From a virus (taxonomy: Duplodnaviria; Heunggongvirae; Uroviricota; Caudoviricetes): a DNA stretch of 10,205 nucleotides. Location: the IMG/VR virus record IMGVR_UViG_2724679140_000003, positions 1 to 10,205 of that record, one strand, 5' to 3'. Below the pieces are notes generated by a model. It was not told where the DNA came from. It saw only the letters and a list, made by a program, of their open reading frames with translations, and made no database searches. The position numbers were made by a program, and so were the translations under genes. This document shows positions 1 through 10,205 of this stretch, one piece after another. Positions within the stretch are counted from its first letter, which is position 1. The number at the start of each line of letters is the position of its first letter.

Positions 1-345
1 GGCGGTGCGCATAGTCTCGTCACGATAGATGATCGGGGATTCAGTAACATTCACGCCGGAAGTGAACTCAAACAGGGTTCTGGCGTCGTTCTCGTACTGT
101 TTTCCCCAGGCCAGCGCCTTAGCGTTAACTTCCGGAGCCACACCGGTGCAAACCTCGGCAAGTAGGGTGTGGAAGTAGGACATTTTCATGTCAGGCCATT
201 TCTTTCCGGAGCGGGGTTTTGCTATCACGTTGTGAACTTCTGAAGCTGTGATGACGCCGAGCCGTAATTTGTGCCACGCATCATCCCCCTGCACGATAGC
301 TCTCACGTCGATCCCAGTACGCTGCAGGATAATGTTCGGTGTCAT
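1..345 (-). CDS. exo: Lambda-type exonuclease (Red alpha), N-terminal part; gene continues past the window edge
   Basis: Reverse-strand translation from ATG at 345..343 reads [115 protein letters not shown], which matches the lambda Exo N-terminus as I recall it. About 115 codons are present, open to position 1. The ATG overlaps the in-frame bet stop (ATGA) as in lambda. Confidence 0.9.
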
Positions 346-412
346 ATTGCCACCTTCTGCTCTGCGGCTTTCTGTTTCAGGAATCCAAGAGCTTTCACTG
401 CTTCGGCCTGTT

Positions 413-1126
413 TCAGTTCTGACAATGCATGAATGTCGCGGCGAAATATCTGGGAACAGAGCGGCAATAAGTCGTCATCCCATGTTTTATCCGGGCGATC
501 AGCAGAGTGTTAATCTCCTGCATGGTTTCATCGTTAACCGGAGTGATGTCGCGTTCCGGCTGATGTTCTGCAGTGCATGCGGTATTTTCGACAATGCGCT
601 CGGCTTCATCCTTGTCATAGATACCAGCAAATCCGAAGGCCAGACGGGCACACTGAATCATGGCTTTATGCCGTAACATCCGTTTGGGATGCGACTGCCA
701 TGGTCCGATGATTTCTTTGCCTTCTCGGGTTTTGAATGGTTCGCGACGGCACTCATCCATCCACTCGGTAACGCAGATCGGATGATTACGGTCCTTGCGG
801 TAAATCCGGCATGTACATGATTCATTGTCCTGCTCAAAGTCCATGCCATCAAACTGCTGGTTTTCATTTATGATGCGGGACCAGCCATCAACGCCCACCA
901 CCGGAACAATGCCGTTCTGCTTATCAGGGAAGGCGTAAATCTCTTTCGTCCACGGATTAAGTCCGTACTGGTTGGCGACGATCAGCAGCGCGATGAATTG
1001 CGCATCGCTGGCATTACCTTTAAATGCCGTCTGGCGAAGAGTGGCGATCAGTTCCTGCGGGTCGACAGAATCCATGCCGACGCGTTCAGCCAGCTTCCCG
1101 GCCAGTGTTGCAAGTGCTGTACTCAT
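413..1126 (-). CDS. bet: Red beta (Bet) single-strand annealing protein, C-terminus altered by an apparent 1-bp deletion (likely pseudogene or truncated variant)
   Basis: The 237-aa ORF starts [26 protein letters not shown] and tracks recalled lambda Bet almost residue for residue up to [12 protein letters not shown], then reads [26 protein letters not shown] and stops. The other frame from about 503 down to 342 still encodes a Bet-like tail ([20 protein letters not shown]...[11 protein letters not shown]) ending in TGA that overlaps the exo ATG. Start ATG at 1126..1124 is preceded by GAGG. Confidence 0.85.
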
Positions 1127-1131
1127 TCGTT

Positions 1132-1431
1132 TTATACCTCTGAATCAATATCAACCTGGTGATGAGCAATGGTTTCAACCATGTACCGGATGTGCTCCGC
1201 CACGCGTTCTTGAAATTCAACATCGTCATCAAATGCGCGACTGATTGCCTGTTTGCTGGCACCGTGGCGTTGCAAATGGTCGATGCAGAGCGATTCAAAC
1301 AGGTGCTGGGGCAGACCTTTTTCCAGGTCGTCCGCCAGCTCCGTTTCTTTTTCTTCGCGAACGATTTGCTGGTAGTGGCGTGACCATGCCTGCTCTTCAA
1401 TGCGATCAAAAATTGGGCATGTACTCATCAT
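1132..1431 (-). CDS. gam: Gam-like RecBCD inhibitor (short GamS-type form, 99 aa)
   Basis: Translation [99 protein letters not shown] matches recalled lambda Gam closely from the GamS start onward. Sits directly upstream of bet on the same strand. GGGG-rich SD before the ATG. Confidence 0.9.
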
Positions 1432-3379
1432 CCGTCACCCCAAAATTTTCAAGTTTGTTTGCAATCATCATTGCAATACCCGGAATTAATGGCGCTGAGG
1501 CTATACCCGCAGGATTTGCACATAAACCGTAAACCGCTGCAATCACCACTTGTCTTTTCCAGTCGAGTTTTTCTAATGATGAAGCTGCTGCTTCGCCAGT
1601 TTCATCACTGCAATCGCGATGCGGATCGCTGCCATCGTTCTCCTTGTGCGGATGTTCAGCACCTTCCATTTCCTCCAGACCTTTTTCCTGATATTCATTC
1701 TGATTTTCTTCATTAAAGGTTTTCTGATACGTTGCGTCGCCCATCACCGCACCACAGTCAGGGCAGTTATCCCCGCCAGTCTGACCGCAGGCATTGCAGA
1801 CTATTTCCGGTTCCTGTTGCACTACTGGCTCAGGTTGTTTCGCATCCGGGCTGATTTTTTCCGTTTCTGGCTGGTTCTGGTACACAGAATCGCGAGTCTG
1901 GATCCCCTTAACCCATTTCGGATCGTTCGGGTCGCTAATTCCGTCAACAAATTCACCACGTGATGCAGCAAGCAATTTATCGGCATCGACAGGATTTTTT
2001 GATGGAATGTTTTTCCGGGCTTCATGGAGTTCTGCCCGCTTTTTCTGGTATTCCGCTTCAACAGGGTTTACCTGTGACTGAGCATCCAGCGGCTGCGTGT
2101 TCTGATGATGTTCAGCTGCATCCGGTTCCACTGTTTCAGCCGTTGCCTGTTCATGTGCCATTGCGCCAGATGGTTGCGGTTTTTCTTCATCATCCTGTTT
2201 TTCTTCTTCTGTTACACGCTGCGGCATCGGGGCAGAGGAGCGACCGCAGGCAATATCCACGATTTCCGGATCAGGGTTGGCATGATCGGTTTCAGTCAGT
2301 ACTTTGTTCAGATATTCAGTGACGTGCGCGGGGATGACCTCGATCCCAATTGGTGCTTCTTTTACGGACGCAACCACGATGGCGCGGGAATAATCCAGCC
2401 CGCCAGGCATGGTGATGAATTTGTCGCGGAAAACAGAAAAGGGCGGTTTATTTTCAGCGATAATTTCCTCAATGCGTTTAGCGTGTGCCGGATGAAGGTT
2501 ATAGATGTCCACGTCCATTGAACGGGCCAGTACGCCAGTGGCTACATCGCGCGCCAGTGACGTCAGATCGTGGACGAAACCTTTGCCGCGATCGGTGAGG
2601 TTCCCGCCGCCAGCATTAGCACCGGAAGCCGTGCGGGTGATACGTGAAACACGATTTCCTTTCATCCACTCTTTTGTCAGCAGACCGCGATCGGTGTAGT
2701 CAGTGCCCAGGTATGCTTCGAAAAAAGCAGTCATCAGCCCCAGGCTTGAATTGCCTGGATTAGGGAAAACTCTGTCAGTATCACGCACCAGTTTGTGGAG
2801 ATCGCGAATTTCCAGCGGATCGAGCAGGCTGGTTTTGTGGGAAACAGCCAGGGCAGTAACAGCTGGTAGTTCTTCAGCTCGTGCAATGTGTAATGCCTGG
2901 AGTTCGTCGCGTGAAACGTGCGTTACCGGTTTTTCGCTGCCGTGTTGAGCAAGCCAGCGAATGGGCAGCTCCTGACCGGAAATCGGGAGTAGCATATTCT
3001 CCTCAATCTCCGTCATGTCTTCGCCATTAACATTGGTATTGTCAGTGCTGGCTGGTTTGTCCTGCGCAGAGGATGAGGGCGCGATAAATACCATTGTGAT
3101 GCCATCTTCCCCGCCTTTTTCGTAACGGTTGCAGAATTCCGTATCAAATACGCCTTCTGGTGGAAGGTCATCAACAACGGGCAAATTGACGCGAACAGGT
3201 TTTTTAAAGTCATCTTCATCGTAGCCAGCATCGTCAATCGCAACAGCACCACGGGAGATGGCAATGGATAATTTTTTCGCTTCAGCCCAGTAGAAACCGC
3301 CTTTAATACCGAGACGTTTTCTTACTTTGTCATTTTTTGCTTCGTAATACAGTGAGTAAACTTGTTTATCGGTGCTCAT
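1406..3379 (-). CDS. Large hypothetical protein (657 aa): acidic low-complexity segments, CxxC-x7-CxxC zinc knuckle, hydrophobic C-terminal segment; function unknown
   Basis: Uninterrupted 1974-nt ORF. ATG at 3379..3377 preceded by TGAGG about 9 nt upstream. Zinc knuckle [16 protein letters not shown] at about residues 528-543. Hydrophobic stretch [30 protein letters not shown] near the C-terminus. The 3' end overlaps the gam start by 26 nt. No Walker A or other catalytic motif recognised by eye. Plus-strand ORFs across this span are antisense and spurious. Confidence 0.85.
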
Positions 3380-3447
3380 TGTTTTTTAACCTCAACTCAG
3401 ATTAAAATTAATGCGAGTGATGAATAAATGTCCCAGGTTCTTCACTC

Positions 3448-3479
3448 AGGCCTGCACAGTGTGCAGGCTTTCTTTTTTT
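3448..3479 (+). terminator. Intrinsic-terminator-like hairpin oriented for plus-strand transcription
   Basis: Perfect 8-bp stem GCCTGCAC / GTGCAGGC (3450-3457 / 3461-3468) with 3-nt loop AGT, followed on the plus strand by TTTCTTTTTTT. On the minus strand the hairpin is preceded by an A-tract and followed by non-U sequence, so it is not a canonical terminator for the surrounding minus-strand genes. Confidence 0.45.
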
Positions 3480-3754
3480 CAGATTTCACCTTTTAATTTC
3501 ATTGCAATCAGAGTTGCCAGAAATTCGGCTTTTTTTTCTGCGGGCAGATTCTTTCCTATGTGCACCAGACACATTTTTTTAACACCATCGTTAAGTGTTT
3601 TAACGTTGCCTGATGGACCGTCGATATCAACCACAGTGAATGGGGTTTCTTTATTTTCTGTTTTAATCACATAGCCAATACGCTTTCCTTCCAGATTAAC
3701 CTCATGAACAATGTCATCAGTAGTAACAACAGTGGCTTCATAACTGGTAATCAT
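3479..3754 (-). CDS. Small hypothetical protein (91 aa)
   Basis: ATG at 3754..3752 is preceded by a strong SD (TAAGGAGAAAAAC then ATG). Translation MITSYEATVVTTDDIVHEVNLEGKRIGYVIKTENKETPFTVVDIDGPSGNVKTLNDGVKKMCLVHIGKNLPAEKKAEFLATLIAMKLKGEI. The ORF-track start at 3802 has no SD. No family recognised. Confidence 0.75.
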   Translation of the reverse strand: MITSYEATVVTTDDIVHEVNLEGKRIGYVIKTENKETPFTVVDIDGPSGNVKTLNDGVKKMCLVHIGKNLPAEKKAEFLATLIAMKLKGEI

Positions 3755-3828
3755 GTTTTTCTCCTTAATTAAGGTTGAGAGAATCCCTGCCATTGCTGGC
3801 ATAAATTCAGTTTCGAATAGTCAGTTAA

Positions 3829-4110
3829 TTAAAGTTCGTGTGCCATCTGGTCTTTTTCGGCACATTGCTTACAGCAGTATTTATGCTCCTTACGTGCAAT
3901 AAGGGAACCGTGCATATAAATAATTTCAGCAGTAAAGGCTTTTTCAGGTTCAATTTGTTTATTACAGAGCGTATATGCACAGGGAATTAAATCCGGGTCC
4001 CCCTTTTGCTGGAGGATTTTTCTGATTCTCCACAGCCATTTTTTAATTCCGGTGTGACTGATGGTCTGCCTGGAGGCAGGCGTAAAACAATAATCAAGCA
4101 TGGGGTTCAT
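3829..4110 (-). CDS. Small cysteine-rich hypothetical protein (about 93 aa), possible zinc-binding
   Basis: ORF MDMNPMLDYCFTP...KYCCKQCAEKDQMAHEL with seven Cys. The GGAG SD at 4122..4119 is too close to the first ATG (4116) but well spaced (8 nt) from the second ATG at 4110, so 4110 is the preferred start. The SD overlaps the stop of the upstream Rha-like gene. Confidence 0.7.
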   Translation of the reverse strand: MNPMLDYCFTPASRQTISHTGIKKWLWRIRKILQQKGDPDLIPCAYTLCNKQIEPEKAFTAEIIYMHGSLIARKEHKYCCKQCAEKDQMAHEL

Positions 4111-4126
4111 ATCCATAGCTCCATTT

Positions 4127-4681
4127 TTATTTTAAGGAAAGCAACTGCTCTACGGTCATATTTTTAATTGCGCTCCGGTTTACAAGAGTCCAGCCTTGTT
4201 TCTTCAGATAAAACTGGAAGGTATCCAGGGTGCAGACCATTGCGCCGTCAGGAACGGTTTCAGTGAATTTGATATTGCCGTGTTCGTCGAGACGGATAAC
4301 CAGGGTGCGTCCGTCCCCGTGAATCATTTTGTCGGGAGACGGGGCGTTATTCTGGCGCAGTTCTGCTTCCATGCGGTCGAACTCAGCAATGTATGCCTCT
4401 TTAAATGCAGCGGCTTTTTTGCCAGTGAAGCCCATCACCAGGAAAACGAAGCCGTTTTTGGTGATTTGGTACATGGGGCGTTTTTCGCCTTTGGCGTCGG
4501 TGTAGGTAACGGGCGTAAAATTGCGCTCGTTAAAATCTTCAGAGCATTCTAGCGTTTCAATTTTGCGCAGAACGTCCTTGTGCATTTTGCGGAAGAACTC
4601 TGCAACCGCAACAGACGTAGTGACAGCGCGACCATTTTCGATGGTTACGTCAGGGTGAGAAAGGGTAGGGATAGTAGCCAT
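4127..4681 (-). CDS. Rha-family phage regulatory protein (184 aa short form; an in-frame upstream start at 4978 would give 283 aa)
   Basis: N-terminal motif RAVTTSVAVAEFFRKMHKDVLRKIE resembles the conserved core of the phage Rha domain (recalled pattern ...VAE.FGKRHDNVLRDI). ATG at 4681..4679 has SD AAGAGG about 8 nt upstream and puts the motif at the usual N-terminal position. The longer in-frame ORF from 4978 contains an intrinsic terminator, so the short form is preferred. Confidence 0.75.
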   Translation of the reverse strand: MATIPTLSHPDVTIENGRAVTTSVAVAEFFRKMHKDVLRKIETLECSEDFNERNFTPVTYTDAKGEKRPMYQITKNGFVFLVMGFTGKKAAAFKEAYIAEFDRMEAELRQNNAPSPDKMIHGDGRTLVIRLDEHGNIKFTETVPDGAMVCTLDTFQFYLKKQGWTLVNRSAIKNMTVEQLLSLK

Positions 4682-4847
4682 AATGGCAGCCTCTTGGTTA
4701 AGTATTAATAACTCACCACCAAGGTTTTCCACGACCATAAGGGTGGTGAGACGTACAGGGGTGGAAATACCGGTCAACCAAGAATCCGGCCAGCCTTGCA
4801 GCTGCCCTGCACGCCCCACCATAATCTGAATGTGGCTGTGCTTGACG

Positions 4848-4873
4848 CATAAAAAAACCGCCTGAGCGCGGTT
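4848..4873 (-). terminator. Intrinsic terminator (minus strand)
   Basis: Minus-strand RNA reads AACCGC-GCUCAG-GCGGUU followed by UUUUUAUG: a 6-bp stem, 6-nt loop and 7-U tract counting the stem Us. Lies between the DicF-like element and the Rha-like gene start. Confidence 0.5.
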
Positions 4874-5146
4874 ATGCGCTTGATTGAATTCCGGGTTTCC
4901 ACGCCCGGCACCCGTTTTATGAGGTGCAGGTGCACTATAATTCCACCCGTTCTGGTTTTCAATAGCTACATTCAACATTTTCTCTACCTTTCATCACCGA
5001 AGTGAACTTTGTTGATGCGGTGCCTGGTGCCTCCAGGTGACGTTAACCAGTTAACAATTAACGCCGGATAATCCACCCATAACACTGATGCTTTTAACTG
5101 TTCCGCGTGCGCTTAGCCGCATTCACCGCATCACAAAATTCACTTT

Positions 5147-5215
5147 AAAAAGGGCGGACATCAGCCGAACTTCAAGAAAAAAACTGATGCCGCCAAGACT
5201 ACACACAGCAGTGTT
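5147..5215 (-). ncRNA. DicF-like small RNA with terminator hairpin (5' end uncertain)
   Basis: Minus strand reads ...CUGCUGUGUGUAGUCUUGGCGGCAUCAGUUUUUUUCUUGAAGUUCGGCUGAUGUCCGCCCUUUUU. Long hairpin GGCGGCAUCAG / CUGAUGUCCGCC (plus-strand 5153..5194) followed by a U-tract. The segment UUGGCGG(C)AUCAGUUUU and the CCGCCC-UUUUU 3' end match E. coli DicF as I recall it. Position after the repressor and tiny ORFs mirrors the Qin dicA-ydfABC-dicF layout. Confidence 0.45.
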
Positions 5216-5392
5216 GTTATTCACAACCGGAGGCGCACTCCCACCATTTAAATTTAACAGACAAGACCGACTCTTTATGGATACCGGAAATGCGCCTTCG
5301 TGTTGTGCCCGGTTTTATTTCACCACCTCCGGGCTTTGGTGGCCTCGGCTATACCCCTACAGCAAGAATATTGAATTAATCCAATAAATGGT

Positions 5393-5545
5393 TTAGCTGG
5401 TATTTTTGGCAAGCCAGCGACGTGCGCCAGCTTCGGTTTTAAACGATTTGCTTTTGGTATACGTCATGGCGGTGAACGTTCCATCCTGGTTGGGGAACAC
5501 GCCACACACCAGGGATTCGTTGTTGCCGAGGTCGATTTTTTGCAT
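5393..5545 (-). CDS. Small hypothetical protein (50 aa), YdaF/YdfA-like position in the operon
   Basis: ATG at 5545..5543 preceded by SD GAGGG. Translation MQKIDLGNNESLVCGVFPNQDGTFTAMTYTKSKSFKTEAGARRWLAKNTS. Length and position resemble the tiny genes following racR or dicA in Rac and Qin; sequence identity not verified. The ORF-track version (87 aa from 5656) runs through the upstream gene in another frame. Confidence 0.6.
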   Translation of the reverse strand: MQKIDLGNNESLVCGVFPNQDGTFTAMTYTKSKSFKTEAGARRWLAKNTS

Positions 5546-5556
5546 TTTGGGAACCC

Positions 5557-5691
5557 TCACATCTTGTTGTTGCGGATAGAGGCTTCTGCCTGCCAGAGAT
5601 CCCAGTCGTTGCTGCGTAGAGCCTGTACAGCTTGGCTGTAAGTGATGCCGCAACAATCCATCAAATACTGAACTACTTCGTAATGCACCAT
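5557..5691 (-). CDS. Small hypothetical protein (44 aa), YdaG/YdfB-like position; not in the supplied ORF track
   Basis: ATG at 5691..5689 preceded by strong SD (AAAGGGAGAGAUAAA then AUG). Translation MVHYEVVQYLMDCCGITYSQAVQALRSNDWDLWQAEASIRNNKM. Stop TGA at 5559..5557 overlaps the SD of the next gene, suggesting translational coupling. Confidence 0.6.
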   Translation of the reverse strand: MVHYEVVQYLMDCCGITYSQAVQALRSNDWDLWQAEASIRNNKM

Positions 5692-5757
5692 TTTATCTCT
5701 CCCTTTAACGCCGGGTGGCGGAACTAAAACCTACAGCGCCGTGCTGTTCTTGATAGA

Positions 5758-5786
5758 ATATTAGTAACACGGATATTTTAAGTCAA
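5758..5786 (-). promoter_or_regulatory. Candidate sigma70 promoter for the leftward early operon
   Basis: Minus strand: -35 TTGACT (5786..5781), 17-nt spacer, -10 TAATAT (5763..5758). Lies downstream of the repressor terminator and about 65 nt upstream of the 44-aa gene. Confidence 0.45.
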
Positions 5787-5883
5787 CAGTATGGCGTATG
5801 ATATTTTTGATTTAGTAACTATGTAAATGTTTTTTCAAGGGAAAAATATTAGTTATACAGCTGATTTTCAGAAGTTATGGCAC

Positions 5884-5913
5884 AAAAAAACCGACTAAGA
5901 CGTCGGTTTTTTG
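5884..5913. terminator. Bidirectional intrinsic terminator downstream of the repressor gene
   Basis: AAAAAAA-CCGAC-UAAGAC-GUCGG-UUUUUUG: stem AACCGAC / GTCGGTT (5889-5895 / 5902-5908), 6-nt loop, A7 tract upstream and T6 tract downstream. About 25 nt past the repressor stop on the minus strand. Confidence 0.6.
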
Positions 5914-5938
5914 TTGTGGATGGGGTAGTGAGTGGTGG

Positions 5939-6400
5939 CTACTGGTTACGTTTCTTTAGTGCCAGCATGTTCTCGAAGGCTTCCTCGTAGAGCTTGTTTA
6001 GTCCACGTAGCTGGTTAAGGAGTTTGGCTTTTTCTGACGCAGGTAGAATCTCGAAGAGGTTAAGTAACTCAGCCTGTTCTTCATTGACCAGCCTCCATCC
6101 TTTGCCTGAAAAGCTATCATCATAAGTATCTGATGATCTTACATAATTCATTAAGTCTTTAAGGTCTTCTCGAATGTCCTCTGGTTTTACCTTTAACAGA
6201 GCCGCAAATTTTAGCGCAGCGTCGGTATTTACCGGTATCTTGCCGTTCAGATACTGGCTAACGGTGCCTTGAGATTCGAATCCCAACAACTCAGCCGCCA
6301 GCTCTTGAGTCAGCTTCAGCTCTTTTTTTCTTGCATTCCATGCGGCTTTTAAATTCTTGCTCGCTTCTGGAGTTGCAATCACTTCGCGTGTTTTTTTCAT
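5939..6400 (-). CDS. DicA/RacR-type prophage repressor (XRE-family HTH, 153 aa, no S24 peptidase domain)
   Basis: HTH segment LTQELAAELLGFESQGTVSQYLNGKIPVNTDAALKFAALLKV. C-terminal segment EEQAELLNLFEILPASEKAKLLNQLRGLNKLYEEAFENMLALKKRN resembles the recalled DicA C-terminus. Divergent from a Cro-like gene. Weak or absent SD. Confidence 0.85.
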   Translation of the reverse strand: MKKTREVIATPEASKNLKAAWNARKKELKLTQELAAELLGFESQGTVSQYLNGKIPVNTDAALKFAALLKVKPEDIREDLKDLMNYVRSSDTYDDSFSGKGWRLVNEEQAELLNLFEILPASEKAKLLNQLRGLNKLYEEAFENMLALKKRNQ

Positions 6401-6448
6401 ACATAGAGTTTATTTGTTTTACCAATATTATCAAAGATAGTCTGACTG

Positions 6449-6477
6449 TTGATCTTTAAAATTAGTGGGGCTAATAT
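6449..6477 (+). promoter_or_regulatory. Candidate rightward early promoter within the divergent repressor/cro intergenic region
   Basis: -35 TTGATC (6449-6454), 17-nt spacer, -10 TAATAT (6472-6477), about 30 nt upstream of the cro-like start. Imperfect inverted repeat TCAAAGAT (6431-6438) / ATCTTTAA (6452-6459) overlaps the -35 and may be an operator. Confidence 0.5.
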
Positions 6478-6507
6478 TTGCTCGAGGCATAACGTAGAAG
6501 GTTGGCT

Positions 6508-6783
6508 ATGAACTTAAGAGACTATTTAAAAGAGAAACATATCACCCAGTTACAGTTTGGGAAGCTAACGGGTTTATCTCAGGTGCATGTAAGTCGAGTG
6601 CTGGGGGGCTATGAAAGATTCAGCCCTGAAAAAGCATTACGTGTTGCTGAAGTAACGAATTTCGAGGTTACACCTCATGAACTCCGGCCTGATATCTACC
6701 CGAATCCGACCGATGGTTTACCTGTTGGATGTAAGGCTAACACACAAAATGCACAGGAGTTGATTCATGAAAATCAGGCATGA
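6508..6783 (+). CDS. Cro-like regulator, YdaS/DicC family (91 aa from ATG; the ORF track uses TTG at 6502)
   Basis: ATG at 6508 preceded by GAAGG 7 nt upstream. Translation MNLRDYLKEKHITQLQFGKLTGLSQVHVSRVLGGYERFSPEKALRVAEVTNFEVTPHELRPDIYP... has an HTH and the C-terminal pattern typical of YdaS-family proteins. Divergent from the repressor. Confidence 0.85.
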   Translation: MNLRDYLKEKHITQLQFGKLTGLSQVHVSRVLGGYERFSPEKALRVAEVTNFEVTPHELRPDIYPNPTDGLPVGCKANTQNAQELIHENQA

Positions 6784-7189
6784 GCACATCGAATCAGTGT
6801 TGTTAGCCCTAGCCGCTGAAAAAGGGCAGGCGTGGGTCGCTAACGCAATTACTGAAGAATATCTCCGCCAGGGGGGAGGTGAATTGTCTCTGACACCAGG
6901 CAAGGACTGGAACAATCAGCAGAACATCTATCGCCGTTGGTTAAAAGGTGAAACGGAAGCGCAAAGGGAAAAAATTCAGAAGCTGATCCCAGCAATTCTG
7001 GCAATCCTTCCGCGGGAGCTGCGTCACCGACTCTGCATCTTCGATACCCTGGAACGCCGTGCATTACTGGCGGCGCAGGAGGCGTTGAGTACGGCAATTG
7101 ATGCGCATGATGATGCAGTCCAGGCCGTTTACCGGAAAGCGCATTTCAGCGGCGGCGGGTCTTCCGACGATTCTGTCATTGTTCATTAA
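6767..7189 (+). CDS. YdaT-like protein (140 aa), proposed CII-like regulator in Rac-type prophages
   Basis: Starts MKIRHEHIESVLLALAAEKG..., resembling the recalled N-terminus of Rac YdaT (MKIKHEHI...). AGGAG SD 7 nt upstream. Overlaps the cro-like gene by 17 nt. Confidence 0.8.
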   Translation: MKIRHEHIESVLLALAAEKGQAWVANAITEEYLRQGGGELSLTPGKDWNNQQNIYRRWLKGETEAQREKIQKLIPAILAILPRELRHRLCIFDTLERRALLAAQEALSTAIDAHDDAVQAVYRKAHFSGGGSSDDSVIVH

Positions 7190-7252
7190 GCAAAAGTTTC
7201 CATGCTGTTTGTGCTTATTCTAAGCCACCGGGCAGCATCATACGGGGCAATT

Positions 7253-8059
7253 ATGGCCGCATTACCATACATGCAACTGTACATAGCTGATTACCTGGCT
7301 GACACCATGCATTTGTCAGCAGAGGAGCATGGTGCGTATTTGTTGCTGATGTTCAATTACTGGCAAACAGGAAAGCCAATACCTAAAAACAGGCTGGCAA
7401 AAATTGCCCGTCTGACTAACGAGCGATGGGCTGATGTTGAACCATCCTTGCAGGAGTTTTTTTGCGATAACGGCGAGGAATGGGTGCATCTTCGGATTGA
7501 GGAAGATCTGGCATCAGTCAGGGAAAAATTAACCAAAAAATCAGCCGCAGGAAAAGCATCTGTTCAGGCCAGAAGAAGCAGAAAGGAAGCTGATGTTCAA
7601 ACAAAACAAGAGAGAAATTTAACAGGTGTTCAAACAGATGTTGAAGTGGTGTTTGAACATGATGTCAACACAAAGGCAACTAATAAAGATACAGATAAAG
7701 ATCTAAAAACAGATCCCCCCCTAAATCCCCCCCGGGGGAATCGAGGTGTCAAAAAGTTTGACCCTCTGGATATTGTTTTGCCGAACTGGATTTCTGTCTC
7801 GCTTTGGCGTGAGTGGGTTGAATTTCGCCAGGCATTGCGAAAACCGATTCGAACGGAGCAGGGCGCTAACGGGGCGATACGGGAACTGGAAAAATTCCGT
7901 CAGCAGGGTTTTACACCTGAGCAGGTGATTCGACACAGCATCGCCAATGAATACCAGGGCCTGTTCGCGCCGAAAGGTGTTCGGCCTGAGACGTTGCTCC
8001 GACAGGTTAACACCGTCTCGTTGCCGGACAGTGCGATCCCGCCTGGCTTCAGGGGGTAA
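7253..8059 (+). CDS. DUF1376 (YdaU-like) replication initiation protein, O-like (269 aa; alternative in-frame start at 7202)
   Basis: N-terminal MAALPYMQLYIADYLADTMHLSAEEHGAYLLLMFNYWQTGKPIP matches the conserved DUF1376 signature (YM.LYI.DYL.DT..LS.EEHGAYL.L). Followed immediately by a DnaC-like gene. ATG at 7253 has GGGG upstream. Confidence 0.85.
   Translation: MAALPYMQLYIADYLADTMHLSAEEHGAYLLLMFNYWQTGKPIPKNRLAKIARLTNERWADVEPSLQEFFCDNGEEWVHLRIEEDLASVREKLTKKSAAGKASVQARRSRKEADVQTKQERNLTGVQTDVEVVFEHDVNTKATNKDTDKDLKTDPPLNPPRGNRGVKKFDPLDIVLPNWISVSLWREWVEFRQALRKPIRTEQGANGAIRELEKFRQQGFTPEQVIRHSIANEYQGLFAPKGVRPETLLRQVNTVSLPDSAIPPGFRG
7556..7672. repeat. Iteron-like repeats inside the DUF1376 gene followed by an AT-rich stretch: candidate replication origin
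   Basis: Repeats of about 10 bp related to TGTTCAAACA at roughly 34-35 bp spacing: cTGTTCAggc (7560), gaTGTTCAAACA (7592), ggTGTTCAAACA (7626), inverted TGTTTGAACA (7651), gaTGTCAACA (7661), plus ggTGTCAAAAA further on at 7747. AT-rich 7672-7712 follows. Confidence 0.4.
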
Positions 8060-8065
8060 CAGACC

Positions 8066-8812
8066 ATGAAAAATATTGCGACAGGAGGCGTTCTGGAGCG
8101 TATCCGCAGACTGACCCCACCACATGTAACCGCCCCATTCAGAACGGTTGCGGAGTGGCGCGAGTGGCAACTTGCTGAAGGCCAGAAACGTAGTGAGGAG
8201 ATCAACCGCCTGAATCGCCAGTTGCGGGTGGAAAAAATTCTGAATCGCTCAGGCATCCAGCCGTTGCACCGTAAATGCTCGTTTGCGAATTACCAGGTGC
8301 AGAACGACGGCCAGCGATACGCGTTAAGCCAGGCGAAATCCATCGCCGATGAACTGATGACCGGGTGTACAAATTTTGCGTTCAGCGGAAAACCTGGTAC
8401 CGGGAAGAATCACTTAGCGGCAGCTATCGGGAATCGCCTGCTGAAAGACGGTCAGACAGTGATTGTGGTTACCGTGGCTGATGTTATGAGTGCTCTACAC
8501 GCCAGCTATGACGACGGGCAATCAGGCGAAAAATTTTTGCGGGAACTGTGCCAAGTGGATCTGCTGGTTCTTGATGAAATTGGCATTCAGCGCGAGACAA
8601 AAAACGAGCAGGTGGTGCTGCACCAGATTGTTGATCGCCGGACAGCGTCGATGTGCAGCGTGGGGATGCTGACAAACCTGAACTATGAGGCCATGAAAAC
8701 ATTGCTCGGCGAGAGGATTATAGATCGCATGACCATGAACGGCGGGCGATGGGTGAATTTTAATTGGGAGAGCTGGCGTCCGAATGTCGTCCAGCCAGGA
8801 ATTGCGAAGTGA
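8066..8812 (+). CDS. DnaC-like helicase loader / IstB-like AAA+ ATPase (YdaV-like replication protein, 248 aa)
   Basis: Walker [16 protein letters not shown] and Walker B LLVLDEIG. Recognisable DnaC-family layout. ATG at 8066 with GGGGG SD. Directly downstream of the O-like gene. Confidence 0.9.
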
Positions 8813-8834
8813 TTTTTACCGGGAGGAAATTTTA

Positions 8835-8984
8835 ATGGAAACCGTTTTTGATGCACTGAAAGCAATGGGAAAAGCCACGTCGGTAGAACTGGCTGCGCGA
8901 CTTGATATCAGTCGTGAAGAAGTGCTGAACGAGCTGTGGGAACTGAAAAAGGCTGGATTCGTTGATAAAAGCGCGTACACCTGA
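8835..8984 (+). CDS. Small winged-helix-like protein (49 aa)
   Basis: Strong SD GGGAGG 8 nt before ATG at 8835. Translation [49 protein letters not shown] looks like an HTH. Ends with TGA at 8982-8984, in frame with the next ORF. Confidence 0.6.
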
Positions 8985-8987
8985 CGT

Positions 8988-9596
8988 GTGGCCGATAACA
9001 ACGTTCAGCAGGAACATCCAGTGCCGGAAGAACAGCCGGAAGAAATCGCCACGGCAACAGTAGCGAAAATCTCAGAGTGCGATTTAACCGCGACGATTGA
9101 ACAACGCGGACCACAAACGGCGGATGAACTGGCTACGCTGTTCGGTACCACATCCCGCAAAGTTGCTTCAACGCTGGCAATGGCAATCAGCAAAGGACGC
9201 CTGATTCGCGTAAATCAGAACGGTAAATTTCGTTACTGCATGCCGGGCGGTAATTTACCAGCAGAGCCGAAAGCTGCATCGGTAGCGGAAACTGATGGTA
9301 AAGCCTTTCCTCAGCCTGCATGTGTTGTTTTACCAGTACAGGAGGCTGCAATACAGGAAGAAATTAAAACAGAAACTGTGGCGGACATTGTGCAGCCGCT
9401 GCCATCGTTCACTGAAACGCGAGCAGATGACCTGGTTTTACCATCGCTGCATATGGCAAACCGCGAACTGCGTCGGGCGAAAAGTCATGTCCAGAAGTGG
9501 GAGCGAGTCTGCGCCGCGCTGCGTGAGCTGAACAAGCACCAGGATATTGTCCGTCAGATTGTCGATTCCTCCAGTCGTATTGTGTCGGAAAAGTGA
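8988..9596 (+). CDS. Hypothetical protein (202 aa) with a second HTH-like segment; GTG start, or a readthrough extension of the preceding ORF
   Basis: Long ORF in the same frame as 8835..8984. First codon GTG at 8988 with no convincing SD. Contains [32 protein letters not shown], which resembles the HTH of the upstream 49-aa ORF. Confidence 0.7.
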
Positions 9597-9612
9597 TTCT
9601 AGGGGAGGGCTT

Positions 9613-10035
9613 ATGGCAAAAGTATTAACACAGGAAGAGCGAGAAAAAATTAAAGGGCAGATTGTTGATCTCGTACGCCAGAGCGAGCGAGAGACGTTAC
9701 GACAACTGGAAGCTAAAACAGGCGCGACAAGATATCTGATGAGTGTTCTCGCCAGAGAGCTTGTTGCCAGTGGCGATGTATATAACTCCGGCTACGGGTT
9801 ATTCCCGCCAGAACAGGCTCGTAAGGACTGGCAAAATGCCCGCAAAAAACTATCCAGGGCAAAGGTGAAGAAACCATCTGTGGTTGATCCTGACCTTATC
9901 TGGTCATTACCAGACGGAGAAATACGCCACTACGACAGGCGTCAGAACATAATCTGTAGCGAGTGCCGGAAGAGCGAAGTTATGCAGCGCGTGCTGGCGT
10001 TTTATCAGGGGAATTTTCAGGAGGTGGCACAGTGA
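9613..10035 (+). CDS. Hypothetical protein (140 aa from ATG 9613; the ORF track extends it to 9547)
   Basis: Strong SD GGGGAGGG immediately upstream of ATG 9613. Translation MAKVLTQEEREKIKGQIVDLVRQSERETLRQLEAKTGATRYLMSVLARELVASGDV... No family recognised. Confidence 0.7.
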   Translation: MAKVLTQEEREKIKGQIVDLVRQSERETLRQLEAKTGATRYLMSVLARELVASGDVYNSGYGLFPPEQARKDWQNARKKLSRAKVKKPSVVDPDLIWSLPDGEIRHYDRRQNIICSECRKSEVMQRVLAFYQGNFQEVAQ

Positions 10036-10205
10036 GCGGGATTGACTACCAGGATTTGGCTGCTGCCAACGCTTTCCTGGCGGATGTGCGGGCAGGGGCG
10101 TTTAACGACCTTTGCGCGGCGTTTGTCAGGCACGAAAAAATTGCAGGACTGGGTGATGGCGACACTGTGACGCTTAAGGAAGCGACTGATGCGCTGCTGC
10201 ACTGT
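10032..10205 (+). CDS. Hypothetical protein, 5' part only (runs off window)
   Basis: GTG at 10032 overlaps the preceding stop (GTGA). Open frame to the window end reading MSGIDYQDLAAANAFLADVRAGAFNDLCAAFVRHEKIAGLGDGDTVTLKEATDALLHC. No SD assessed; short and partial. Confidence 0.35.
   Translation, partial: MSGIDYQDLAAANAFLADVRAGAFNDLCAAFVRHEKIAGLGDGDTVTLKEATDALLHC

Follow-up and report, generated by a model that had tools for sequence, protein, structure and literature searches.

The question raised by this locus is what kind of protein a tailed phage encodes immediately upstream of its gam gene. It concerns a stretch of 10,205 nucleotides (nt) from a virus of the Caudoviricetes, positions 1 to 10,205 of the IMG/VR record IMGVR_UViG_2724679140_000003; we will call this whole stretch the window. 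On its minus strand there is an open reading frame (ORF) coding for 657 amino acids (aa) which had been described, in a sequence-only reading, as a protein of no recognisable family and as the strongest candidate for an undescribed function. We have found that, as judged from sequence comparison, the ORF belongs to a known and annotated family, that of RecE or exonuclease VIII, of which it represents the N-terminal region. The nuclease domain is missing; in its place there is a conserved hydrophobic tail of 42 aa. We will call the N-terminal region RecE-N and the complete protein RecE-N::tail. The positions of their features are given in Table 1.

A RecE protein without nuclease domain

The family is recognised by Pfam (PF06630, Table 1), by NCBIfam and by PHROG. 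In NCBIfam residues 1–600 match positions 1–600 of the 877 positions of the exodeoxyribonuclease VIII model NF007259, with 1197.1 bits. The equivalog cutoff of this model, 1269 bits, is not reached because the final third of the model is absent from the ORF. PHROG 607 is matched at 2.6e-249, and the product is 100% identical to a RefSeq protein (P0001, WP_073972150.1) which carries the name 'RecE family exodeoxyribonuclease'. Searching Pfam with five separate segments of the ORF gave only PF06630 and zinc-ribbon matches under the threshold; no Pfam relative was found for the central domain. The match to a well-characterised family is thus a partial one. Of the undescribed function one part stands, since the N-terminal region of RecE is termed of unknown function in reviews (PMC11611040, PMC11610958), and the other part falls, the family being known and annotated.

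The limits of the homology are very sharp. In BLASTP against RecE of K-12, residues 48–598 align with RecE residues 40–587 (84% identity) and there is no alignment beyond. With the full-length RecE of the mouse strain E. coli M19 the identity is about 96% as far as the motif DETGEAA, where the two proteins diverge. At the DNA level the identity with recE from window position 1586 upward is 96.5% for M19 and 93.6% for K-12. Pfam finds in the ORF no match to PF12684 or to any other PD-(D/E)XK nuclease, while the full-length relatives have PF12684. The homology ends where the recombineering-active fragment RecE588 starts: the ORF keeps exactly the part which is discarded in RecE588. Judging from its domains, the protein cannot be a nuclease.

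RecE of the K-12 Rac prophage (b1350, 866 aa) shares with the ORF the central domain, the helical block and the CNAC-x7-CPDC knuckle. Its gene occupies the same site of a Rac-type prophage, between a racC-like gene and ralR. The two differ in what follows: K-12 RecE has residues 588–866, a toroidal PD-(D/E)XK nuclease which is sufficient for RecET recombineering, and recT is present in K-12 Rac. The ORF does not have these residues and ends in the hydrophobic tail; recT is not found next to it, the downstream genes being gam, bet and exo. Residues 1–47 of the ORF are also unlike K-12 RecE, yet they match other RecE alleles (M19, Citrobacter).

A related case has been reported recently. Nuclease-less proteins called RecE-2 are found in the Rec modules of lambdoid phages, and their roles are given as unknown in the main account of that work (Genome Res 2025, PMC12315714). 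As presented there, they are like our ORF in being related to RecE, in having no nuclease domain and in belonging to an early-left recombination module. They are described in the same account as 'distantly related' to Rac RecE, whereas the ORF is closely related to it. The tail, its linkage to gam and its selection are absent from that account, supplementary lists aside (PMC12315714), and we have found no description of these three features in the literature.

The composition of the protein agrees with the sequence-only reading, which had listed a basic and aromatic N-terminus, acidic linkers and a CxxC-x7-CxxC knuckle. The net charge is -44 (112 D+E against 68 K+R) and the acidic linkers are found in residues 393–439 and 558–598. 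Residues 610–641 form an uncharged hydrophobic stretch which ends 16 residues before the C-terminus. The knuckle is almost invariant across 29 proteins of the family; its Pfam zinc-ribbon matches are all under the cutoff, and one of the lineages described below (lineage C) does not have the first CxxC.

Origin by cassette exchange

With E. coli IGC_EcoliInv_1.1 the window shares 99.98% identity. Its sequence is part there of a Rac-type prophage inserted at ttcA, with intR, xisR, ralR, a racC-like gene, ydaE, rha and ydaS/T/U/V; this prophage is KingRac. The window derives from a KingRac-like prophage of this type at ttcA, one that can be induced and transmitted. In the mouse gut KingRac took the place of the defective Rac carried by a K-12 invader strain; it is inducible by mitomycin C, makes particles and lysogenises in vivo (PMC6731689).

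The sequence-only reading had placed the ORF in the slot where lambda has kil-cIII-ea10-ral, a hotspot for cargo genes in lambdoid phages. This does not apply here: the backbone is of Rac type and not of lambda type, and therefore the slot in front of gam is where recE normally sits. When the DNA is compared with that of K-12 Rac and of M19, a cassette is seen to have been cleanly exchanged, and the sequence to either side of it is still that of Rac. The swapped cassette has about 1.97 kb and ends at window position 1585. It contains exo, bet and gam along with the final 59 codons of the ORF, and it stands in place of recT and of the nuclease-coding 3' part of recE. Instead of imported cargo, the ORF is the resident 5' part of recE which was left after the swap.

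The tail is rich in Ala, Gly and Pro and, together with its flanking residues, makes the C-terminal segment of about 59 aa. An origin of the tail in lambda is ruled out, as the homology with lambda stops at the start of gam. A duplication of a segment of the central domain was also considered, and rejected: the weak likeness found by BLAST (E 0.91) was not reproduced by profile-profile comparison.

The lambda-type genes gam, bet and exo had been correctly recognised downstream, and so had the overlap of the ORF with gam. Its length is 26 nt if gam starts at the first ATG (1431) and 23 nt with the start at 1428 given by the Prokaryotic Genome Annotation Pipeline (PGAP). A stretch similar to a Shine-Dalgarno sequence, GGGGTGACGG, precedes gam inside the last tail codons of the ORF. 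In the loci whose coordinates were compared, the overlap of stop and start is kept in the three lineages of the tail: 23–26 nt in lineages A and C, 4 nt in lineage B. No sigma-70-like promoter was found between window positions 1000 and 4200, which fits a long early-left transcript. The overlap makes it very probable that the ORF is expressed together with gam and the Red genes, as had been supposed, and translationally coupled to them.

Distribution and lineages of the tail

The last 58 residues were compared by tblastn with 50,697 phage records. They were found in 6 records, in all cases as the C-terminus of an 'exodeoxyribonuclease VIII' located directly upstream of gam. These matches include the Shiga toxin (Stx) phages 75/02 Stx, POCJ13, PhiR5_2 and phiSTEC1589, the first three of which were deposited as phage genomes. 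An exhaustive HMMER search in 1.84 billion representative proteins gave 5 clusters with the tail, all of them derivatives of RecE-N. A free-standing small gene is ruled out, since all the matches of both searches are C-termini of RecE-N. Of 5426 complete E. coli genomes, 106 (about 2%) carry the tail DNA, among them the outbreak strain O104:H4 C227-11. Altogether RecE-N::tail has been found in prophages of E. coli, Shigella and E. albertii and in Stx phages. The databases hold hundreds of members, which form dozens of clusters at 90% identity with 656–700 aa, all without PF12684 and with a nearly invariant tail.

Twelve loci with the tail were read, the window and 11 others which were fetched; a contig scan for further loci used patterns drawn from one short motif (4 loci). 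The twelve loci form three lineages. In lineage A, that of the window, the ORF has 657–665 aa, the backbone is of Rac type and gam-bet-exo follow. In lineage B the ORF has 682–690 aa and is also followed by gam-bet-exo. In lineage C the ORF has 642–646 aa and the backbone is of Rac type; gam is followed by AAA_24, a Sak4-like protein. The frame is open through the tail in the three lineages (646–690 aa). The comparison of gene content across related prophages, which had been suggested in the sequence-only reading, shows gam directly downstream in 11 of these 12 loci; in the remaining one (L011) an IS110 element is found in between. The recombinase past gam is variable: Bet-Exo in most loci, the AAA_24 protein in lineage C. 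Therefore the pair formed by RecE-N::tail and gam travels with different annealases. The AAA_24 protein (PF13479) has 365 aa and replaces bet-exo (L005 3630–4727, L008 1900–2997 (-)).

Lineage B comprises 75/02 Stx, POCJ13, PhiR5_2, phiSTEC1589 and the ynfG prophage of C227-11. It has RecE-N, the acidic linkers and the knuckle as in our ORF. Its tail is 70–77% identical to the tail of the ORF, and the whole protein 62%. It differs from the ORF by another module in residues 96–231, by its short overlap with gam and by its C-terminus, GDKS. The backbone is also different: lambda/Stx-type with N and kilR in lineage B, Rac-type in the window.

The genes of lineage C are labelled by PGAP as pseudogenes with a 'missing C-terminus' (L005 5175–6947, L008 3445–5217, L011 4151–5923). 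This label is an artefact, because they were compared with full-length RecE; their frame is open over 642–646 aa through the tail.

Two records have an E. coli-type recE region in an unexpected host. One is a contig binned as Veillonella parvula (L014, JAGZPX010000007.1; 65% identity), the other a phage with Actinobacillus pleuropneumoniae as recorded host (PP818812.1; 93–96% identity). In both cases mis-binning or a wrong host assignment is likely.

Selection and modularity

The 42 codons of the tail were compared between lineages. The ratio of nonsynonymous to synonymous substitutions (dN/dS) is 0.05–0.12 at synonymous distances (dS) of 0.7–1.9, and 31 of the 42 positions are invariant in the 29 proteins. 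With such a high dS the constraint must act on the peptide in this frame, not at the level of DNA or RNA. By its pattern of substitution the tail is a conserved element and not read-through junk. Nor is the ORF a fusion created by frameshift errors, as the sequence-only reading had envisaged: its fused form is conserved, and purifying selection acts on it.

A sliding analysis of dN/dS along the protein shows conserved blocks in residues 1–95, 242–392, 452–500 and 614–643, with variable or swapped segments between them. These values place the tail and three N-terminal blocks under strong purifying selection. The ratio is about 0.05 for residues 1–95 (against lineage B) and 0.03–0.18 for the central domain, residues 232–392. 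The acidic linkers evolve freely (dN/dS 0.4–1.8) and the linker just before the tail is almost neutral. The module in residues 96–231 has many gaps in the alignment and nonsynonymous distances (dN) of 0.5–1.1. The central domain, with its nearly invariant glycine-rich motif, is recognisable in the RecE proteins of Gifsy-1/2, of a Klebsiella phage and of HK225, with 34–49% identity. This degree of conservation makes the motif a candidate for a functional site of the uncharacterised region.

RecE-N occurs with three different C-termini: the nuclease PF12684, a DnaQ-like exonuclease (PF16473) and the tail. The second combination is found in P0030 (800 aa) and in an ORF of L014 (4001–6439 (+), 812 aa). 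They have the same RecE-N up to about residue 600, followed by a 3'-5' exonuclease of the PF16473/RNase T type; hence they are still nucleases, unlike our ORF. The three C-termini, together with the central domain kept in Gifsy, Klebsiella and HK225, indicate that RecE-N behaves as an independent evolutionary unit.

Possible role of the protein

The reading which we prefer, with moderate confidence, is that the ORF codes for a RecE-family protein which acts in the phage recombination module as a non-catalytic accessory or scaffold subunit. Its translation would be coupled to that of Gam, so that the two are made in step. The function which RecE-N has in full-length RecE would be supplied in trans to a Red or Sak4 system, and nuclease activity would be contributed by lambda Exo. 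The tail, presumably helical, may stand in for the tetramer-forming nuclease domain as an element of oligomerisation or docking; it could contact further copies of the protein, Gam/RecBCD or the membrane. The N-terminal region has a single known phenotype: full-length RecE achieves more linear-linear (end-to-end) recombination when it is present (Fu et al. 2012, as cited in PMC11611040).

A more specific version, which we put forward only tentatively, is that RecE-N is an autonomous and conserved accessory in the recombination modules of enterobacterial phages, with interchangeable C-terminal effectors. The form with the tail, taken as a hydrophobic hairpin of 42 aa, would tether or organise linear DNA ends and would be made together with Gam. 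This tethering might rely on self-assembly, on contact with Gam/RecBCD or on the membrane.

Several observations weigh against an accessory role. RecE-N exchanges freely with full-length recE alleles, so that lineages A and C differ in places by a dS of about 0. Hence the conservation of RecE-N may go back to selection on the full-length protein. Some copies are damaged or reduced. In L009 there are insertion sequence (IS) elements inside the ORF, in L011 the IS110 element splits the ORF from gam, and P0122 and P0123 have in-frame internal deletions. The loss of the first CxxC in lineage C shows that parts of the N-terminal region are dispensable. No co-variation of the tail with Gam was seen: the Gam proteins next to a tail look like the ordinary Gam of lambda and 933W. 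The structural search, which had also been suggested in the sequence-only reading, was equally unhelpful. An AlphaFold2 model of the whole ORF from an alignment of 29 sequences has a mean confidence score (pLDDT) of 31.5 and is unusable; for residues 1–100, with 38 sequences, pLDDT is 53.9, and Foldseek found for this model nothing in the PDB at E <= 0.001. The profile of the whole family has no match among PDB sequences. A profile of the central domain which included the homologues from Gifsy, Klebsiella and HK225 had as its only match in the PDB a de novo designed repeat, which at E 0.14 counts as noise. The role as such is proposed from the sequence.

The first alternative to be considered is that the ORF is a functionless remnant. 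Recombination between a Rac-like and a lambda-like phage would have cut recE, and the frame would be kept for the coupling with gam or would be too recent to decay. The geometry of the cassette swap fits such an origin, and the N-terminal region of RecE is dispensable for recombineering activity (PMC11611040). The copies with in-frame deletions or IS insertions, the Shine-Dalgarno-like sequence of gam within the ORF and the PGAP label of the lineage C copies all point in the same direction. Nevertheless coupling requires only an open frame, whereas the tail shows dN/dS values of 0.05–0.12 with saturated dS and 31 of its 42 residues are invariant, while the adjoining acidic linkers evolve freely with values of 0.4–1.8. 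A frame of 1.9–2.1 kb has remained open in three lineages diverged to dS >1 and in hundreds of assemblies, and the pseudogenes of lineage C are an artefact of annotation. We consider this explanation unlikely.

The same degree of doubt applies to a second alternative, a specific partnership with Gam. The tail would dock RecE-N to Gam, to RecBCD or to DNA ends, and the pair would protect or channel linear phage DNA whatever the annealase. It is suggested by the position of the tail, which occurs nowhere but directly in front of gam, the stop of the ORF overlapping the gam start. The recombinase downstream, in contrast, may be Bet-Exo or the Sak4-like AAA_24; besides, Rac phages with full-length RecE have no gam. 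Yet lambda Gam works alone, and the Gam proteins which adjoin a tail are 82–90% identical to the tail-less Gam of lambda and 933W, with nothing distinctive in them. The linkage may only reflect the boundaries of a mobile cassette.

The sequence-only reading had suggested a membrane-anchored product for anti-defence or superinfection exclusion, carried as cargo by the early-left operon. The ORF does sit in this operon, and an uncharged stretch of 32 residues placed 16 residues from the end has the geometry of a tail anchor. The hydrophobic segment is real, but its strength as a membrane helix or anchor is only borderline. Its best mean Kyte-Doolittle value over 19 residues is 1.62, with 1.62–1.75 as the full range of the values, whereas the additive free energy (dG) on the Hessa scale is positive, about +4 to +5 kcal/mol (+3 to +5 kcal/mol as the full range). 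There are four invariant residues, N622, P623, P630 and P633. In lineages B and C position 634 is Asp, and an Asp inside the stretch is found in most family members. Conservation of such specific residues looks more like that of a packing interface than that of a generic anchor. Furthermore no sign of anti-defence or exclusion activity was found, PADLOC-DB giving 0 families at E <= 1. RecE-N, which belongs to a bona fide recombination nuclease, makes up 91% of the protein, and the protein is never found outside a Rec module. We regard such a role as quite improbable.

As for an active exodeoxyribonuclease VIII, it is hardly credible in spite of the names given in RefSeq, GenBank and PHROG: there is no PF12684 or PD-(D/E)XK match, the score of NF007259 is under its cutoff (1197 against 1269 bits) and covers only positions 1–600 of 877, and beyond RecE residue 587 there is no homology, the crystallised nuclease domain lying downstream of this point (PMC11611040).

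Other features of the window

Table 1. Location of the ORF features and of the downstream genes in the window.
Feature	Residues of the ORF product	Window positions	Strand	Remarks
Whole ORF, RecE-N::tail	657 aa + stop	1406..3379	minus	RecE-family protein without nuclease domain
RecE N-terminal homologous region	1–598	1586..3379	minus	recE homology ends at 1585/1586
Basic/aromatic N-terminal domain, conserved	1–95	3095..3379	minus	Common to Citrobacter and Salmonella RecE
Pfam PF06630 Exonuc_VIII match	52–189	2813..3226	minus	1e-37, 130.5 bits (cutoff 25)
Variable module	96–231	2687..3094	minus	Unrelated alternative version in lineage B
RecE central domain, highly conserved	232–392	2204..2686	minus	Carries an invariant 12-residue glycine-rich motif
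Helical block, conserved	440–497	1889..2062	minus	dN/dS 0.06; found also in Citrobacter RecE
CNAC-x7-CPDC zinc-ribbon-like knuckle	528–542	1754..1798	minus	Ordinary RecE feature, identical at K-12 RecE 517–531
Hydrophobic tail, conserved 42 aa	606–647	1439..1564	minus	In place of the nuclease domain
gam, lambda GamS-type RecBCD inhibitor		1132..1431	minus	Pfam PF06064, 1.2e-57
bet (Red-beta)		342..1126	minus	1 nt deleted near 492, which shifts the frame
exo (lambda exonuclease), 5' part		1..345	minus	Cut off by the window edge

Gam of the window is 83–85% identical to Gam of lambda and 933W. The deletion in bet is relative to IGC_EcoliInv_1.1 and yields a product of 237 aa with an aberrant C-terminus; the normal C-terminus of Bet is readable in another frame at 342–494. 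Either bet is genuinely inactivated by mutation here, or the sequence was misread at this point.

Directly before the start of the ORF, on the opposite strand, there is a terminator-like site (3448–3470 (+)) with a 10-bp stem, a 3-nt loop and a T-run. Its function might be to terminate antisense transcription, or it may be bidirectional. Farther on, Rfam detects the C4 antisense RNA (4739–4826 (-), 76.7 bits) and isrK (4851–4927 (-), 69.2 bits), both within the 5' part of an Ash+Rha ORF (4127–4978). The region looks like a regulatory unit of the P1/P7 c4/antirepressor type in a Rac-type prophage. A replication-proximal gene of the DUF1627 family (8836–9596 (+)) is annotated in the near-identical genome as a pseudogene with an internal stop; in the window its frame is open only from 8988.

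Implications

The family of this protein and its RefSeq entry were already known; the form with the tail is a conserved, uncharacterised variant. The role of the large N-terminal region of RecE has been open since RecET recombineering was developed. Its presence greatly improves the joining of two linear DNAs by full-length RecE, a property on which direct cloning is based. If RecE-N is indeed an autonomous accessory, its tail form would give Red or Sak4-type systems an end-to-end recombination which is otherwise found only with full-length RecE. There are also consequences for annotation: hundreds of entries named 'exodeoxyribonuclease VIII' have no nuclease domain, and certain intact copies carry a pseudogene flag. 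A natural stand-alone RecE-N, which is separated from the nuclease, maintained under purifying selection and carried by phages that are viable, among them KingRac and several Stx phages, offers a clean genetic handle. It allows one to ask what this part of RecE contributes, and whether lambda Red can be upgraded with it for linear-linear recombination.

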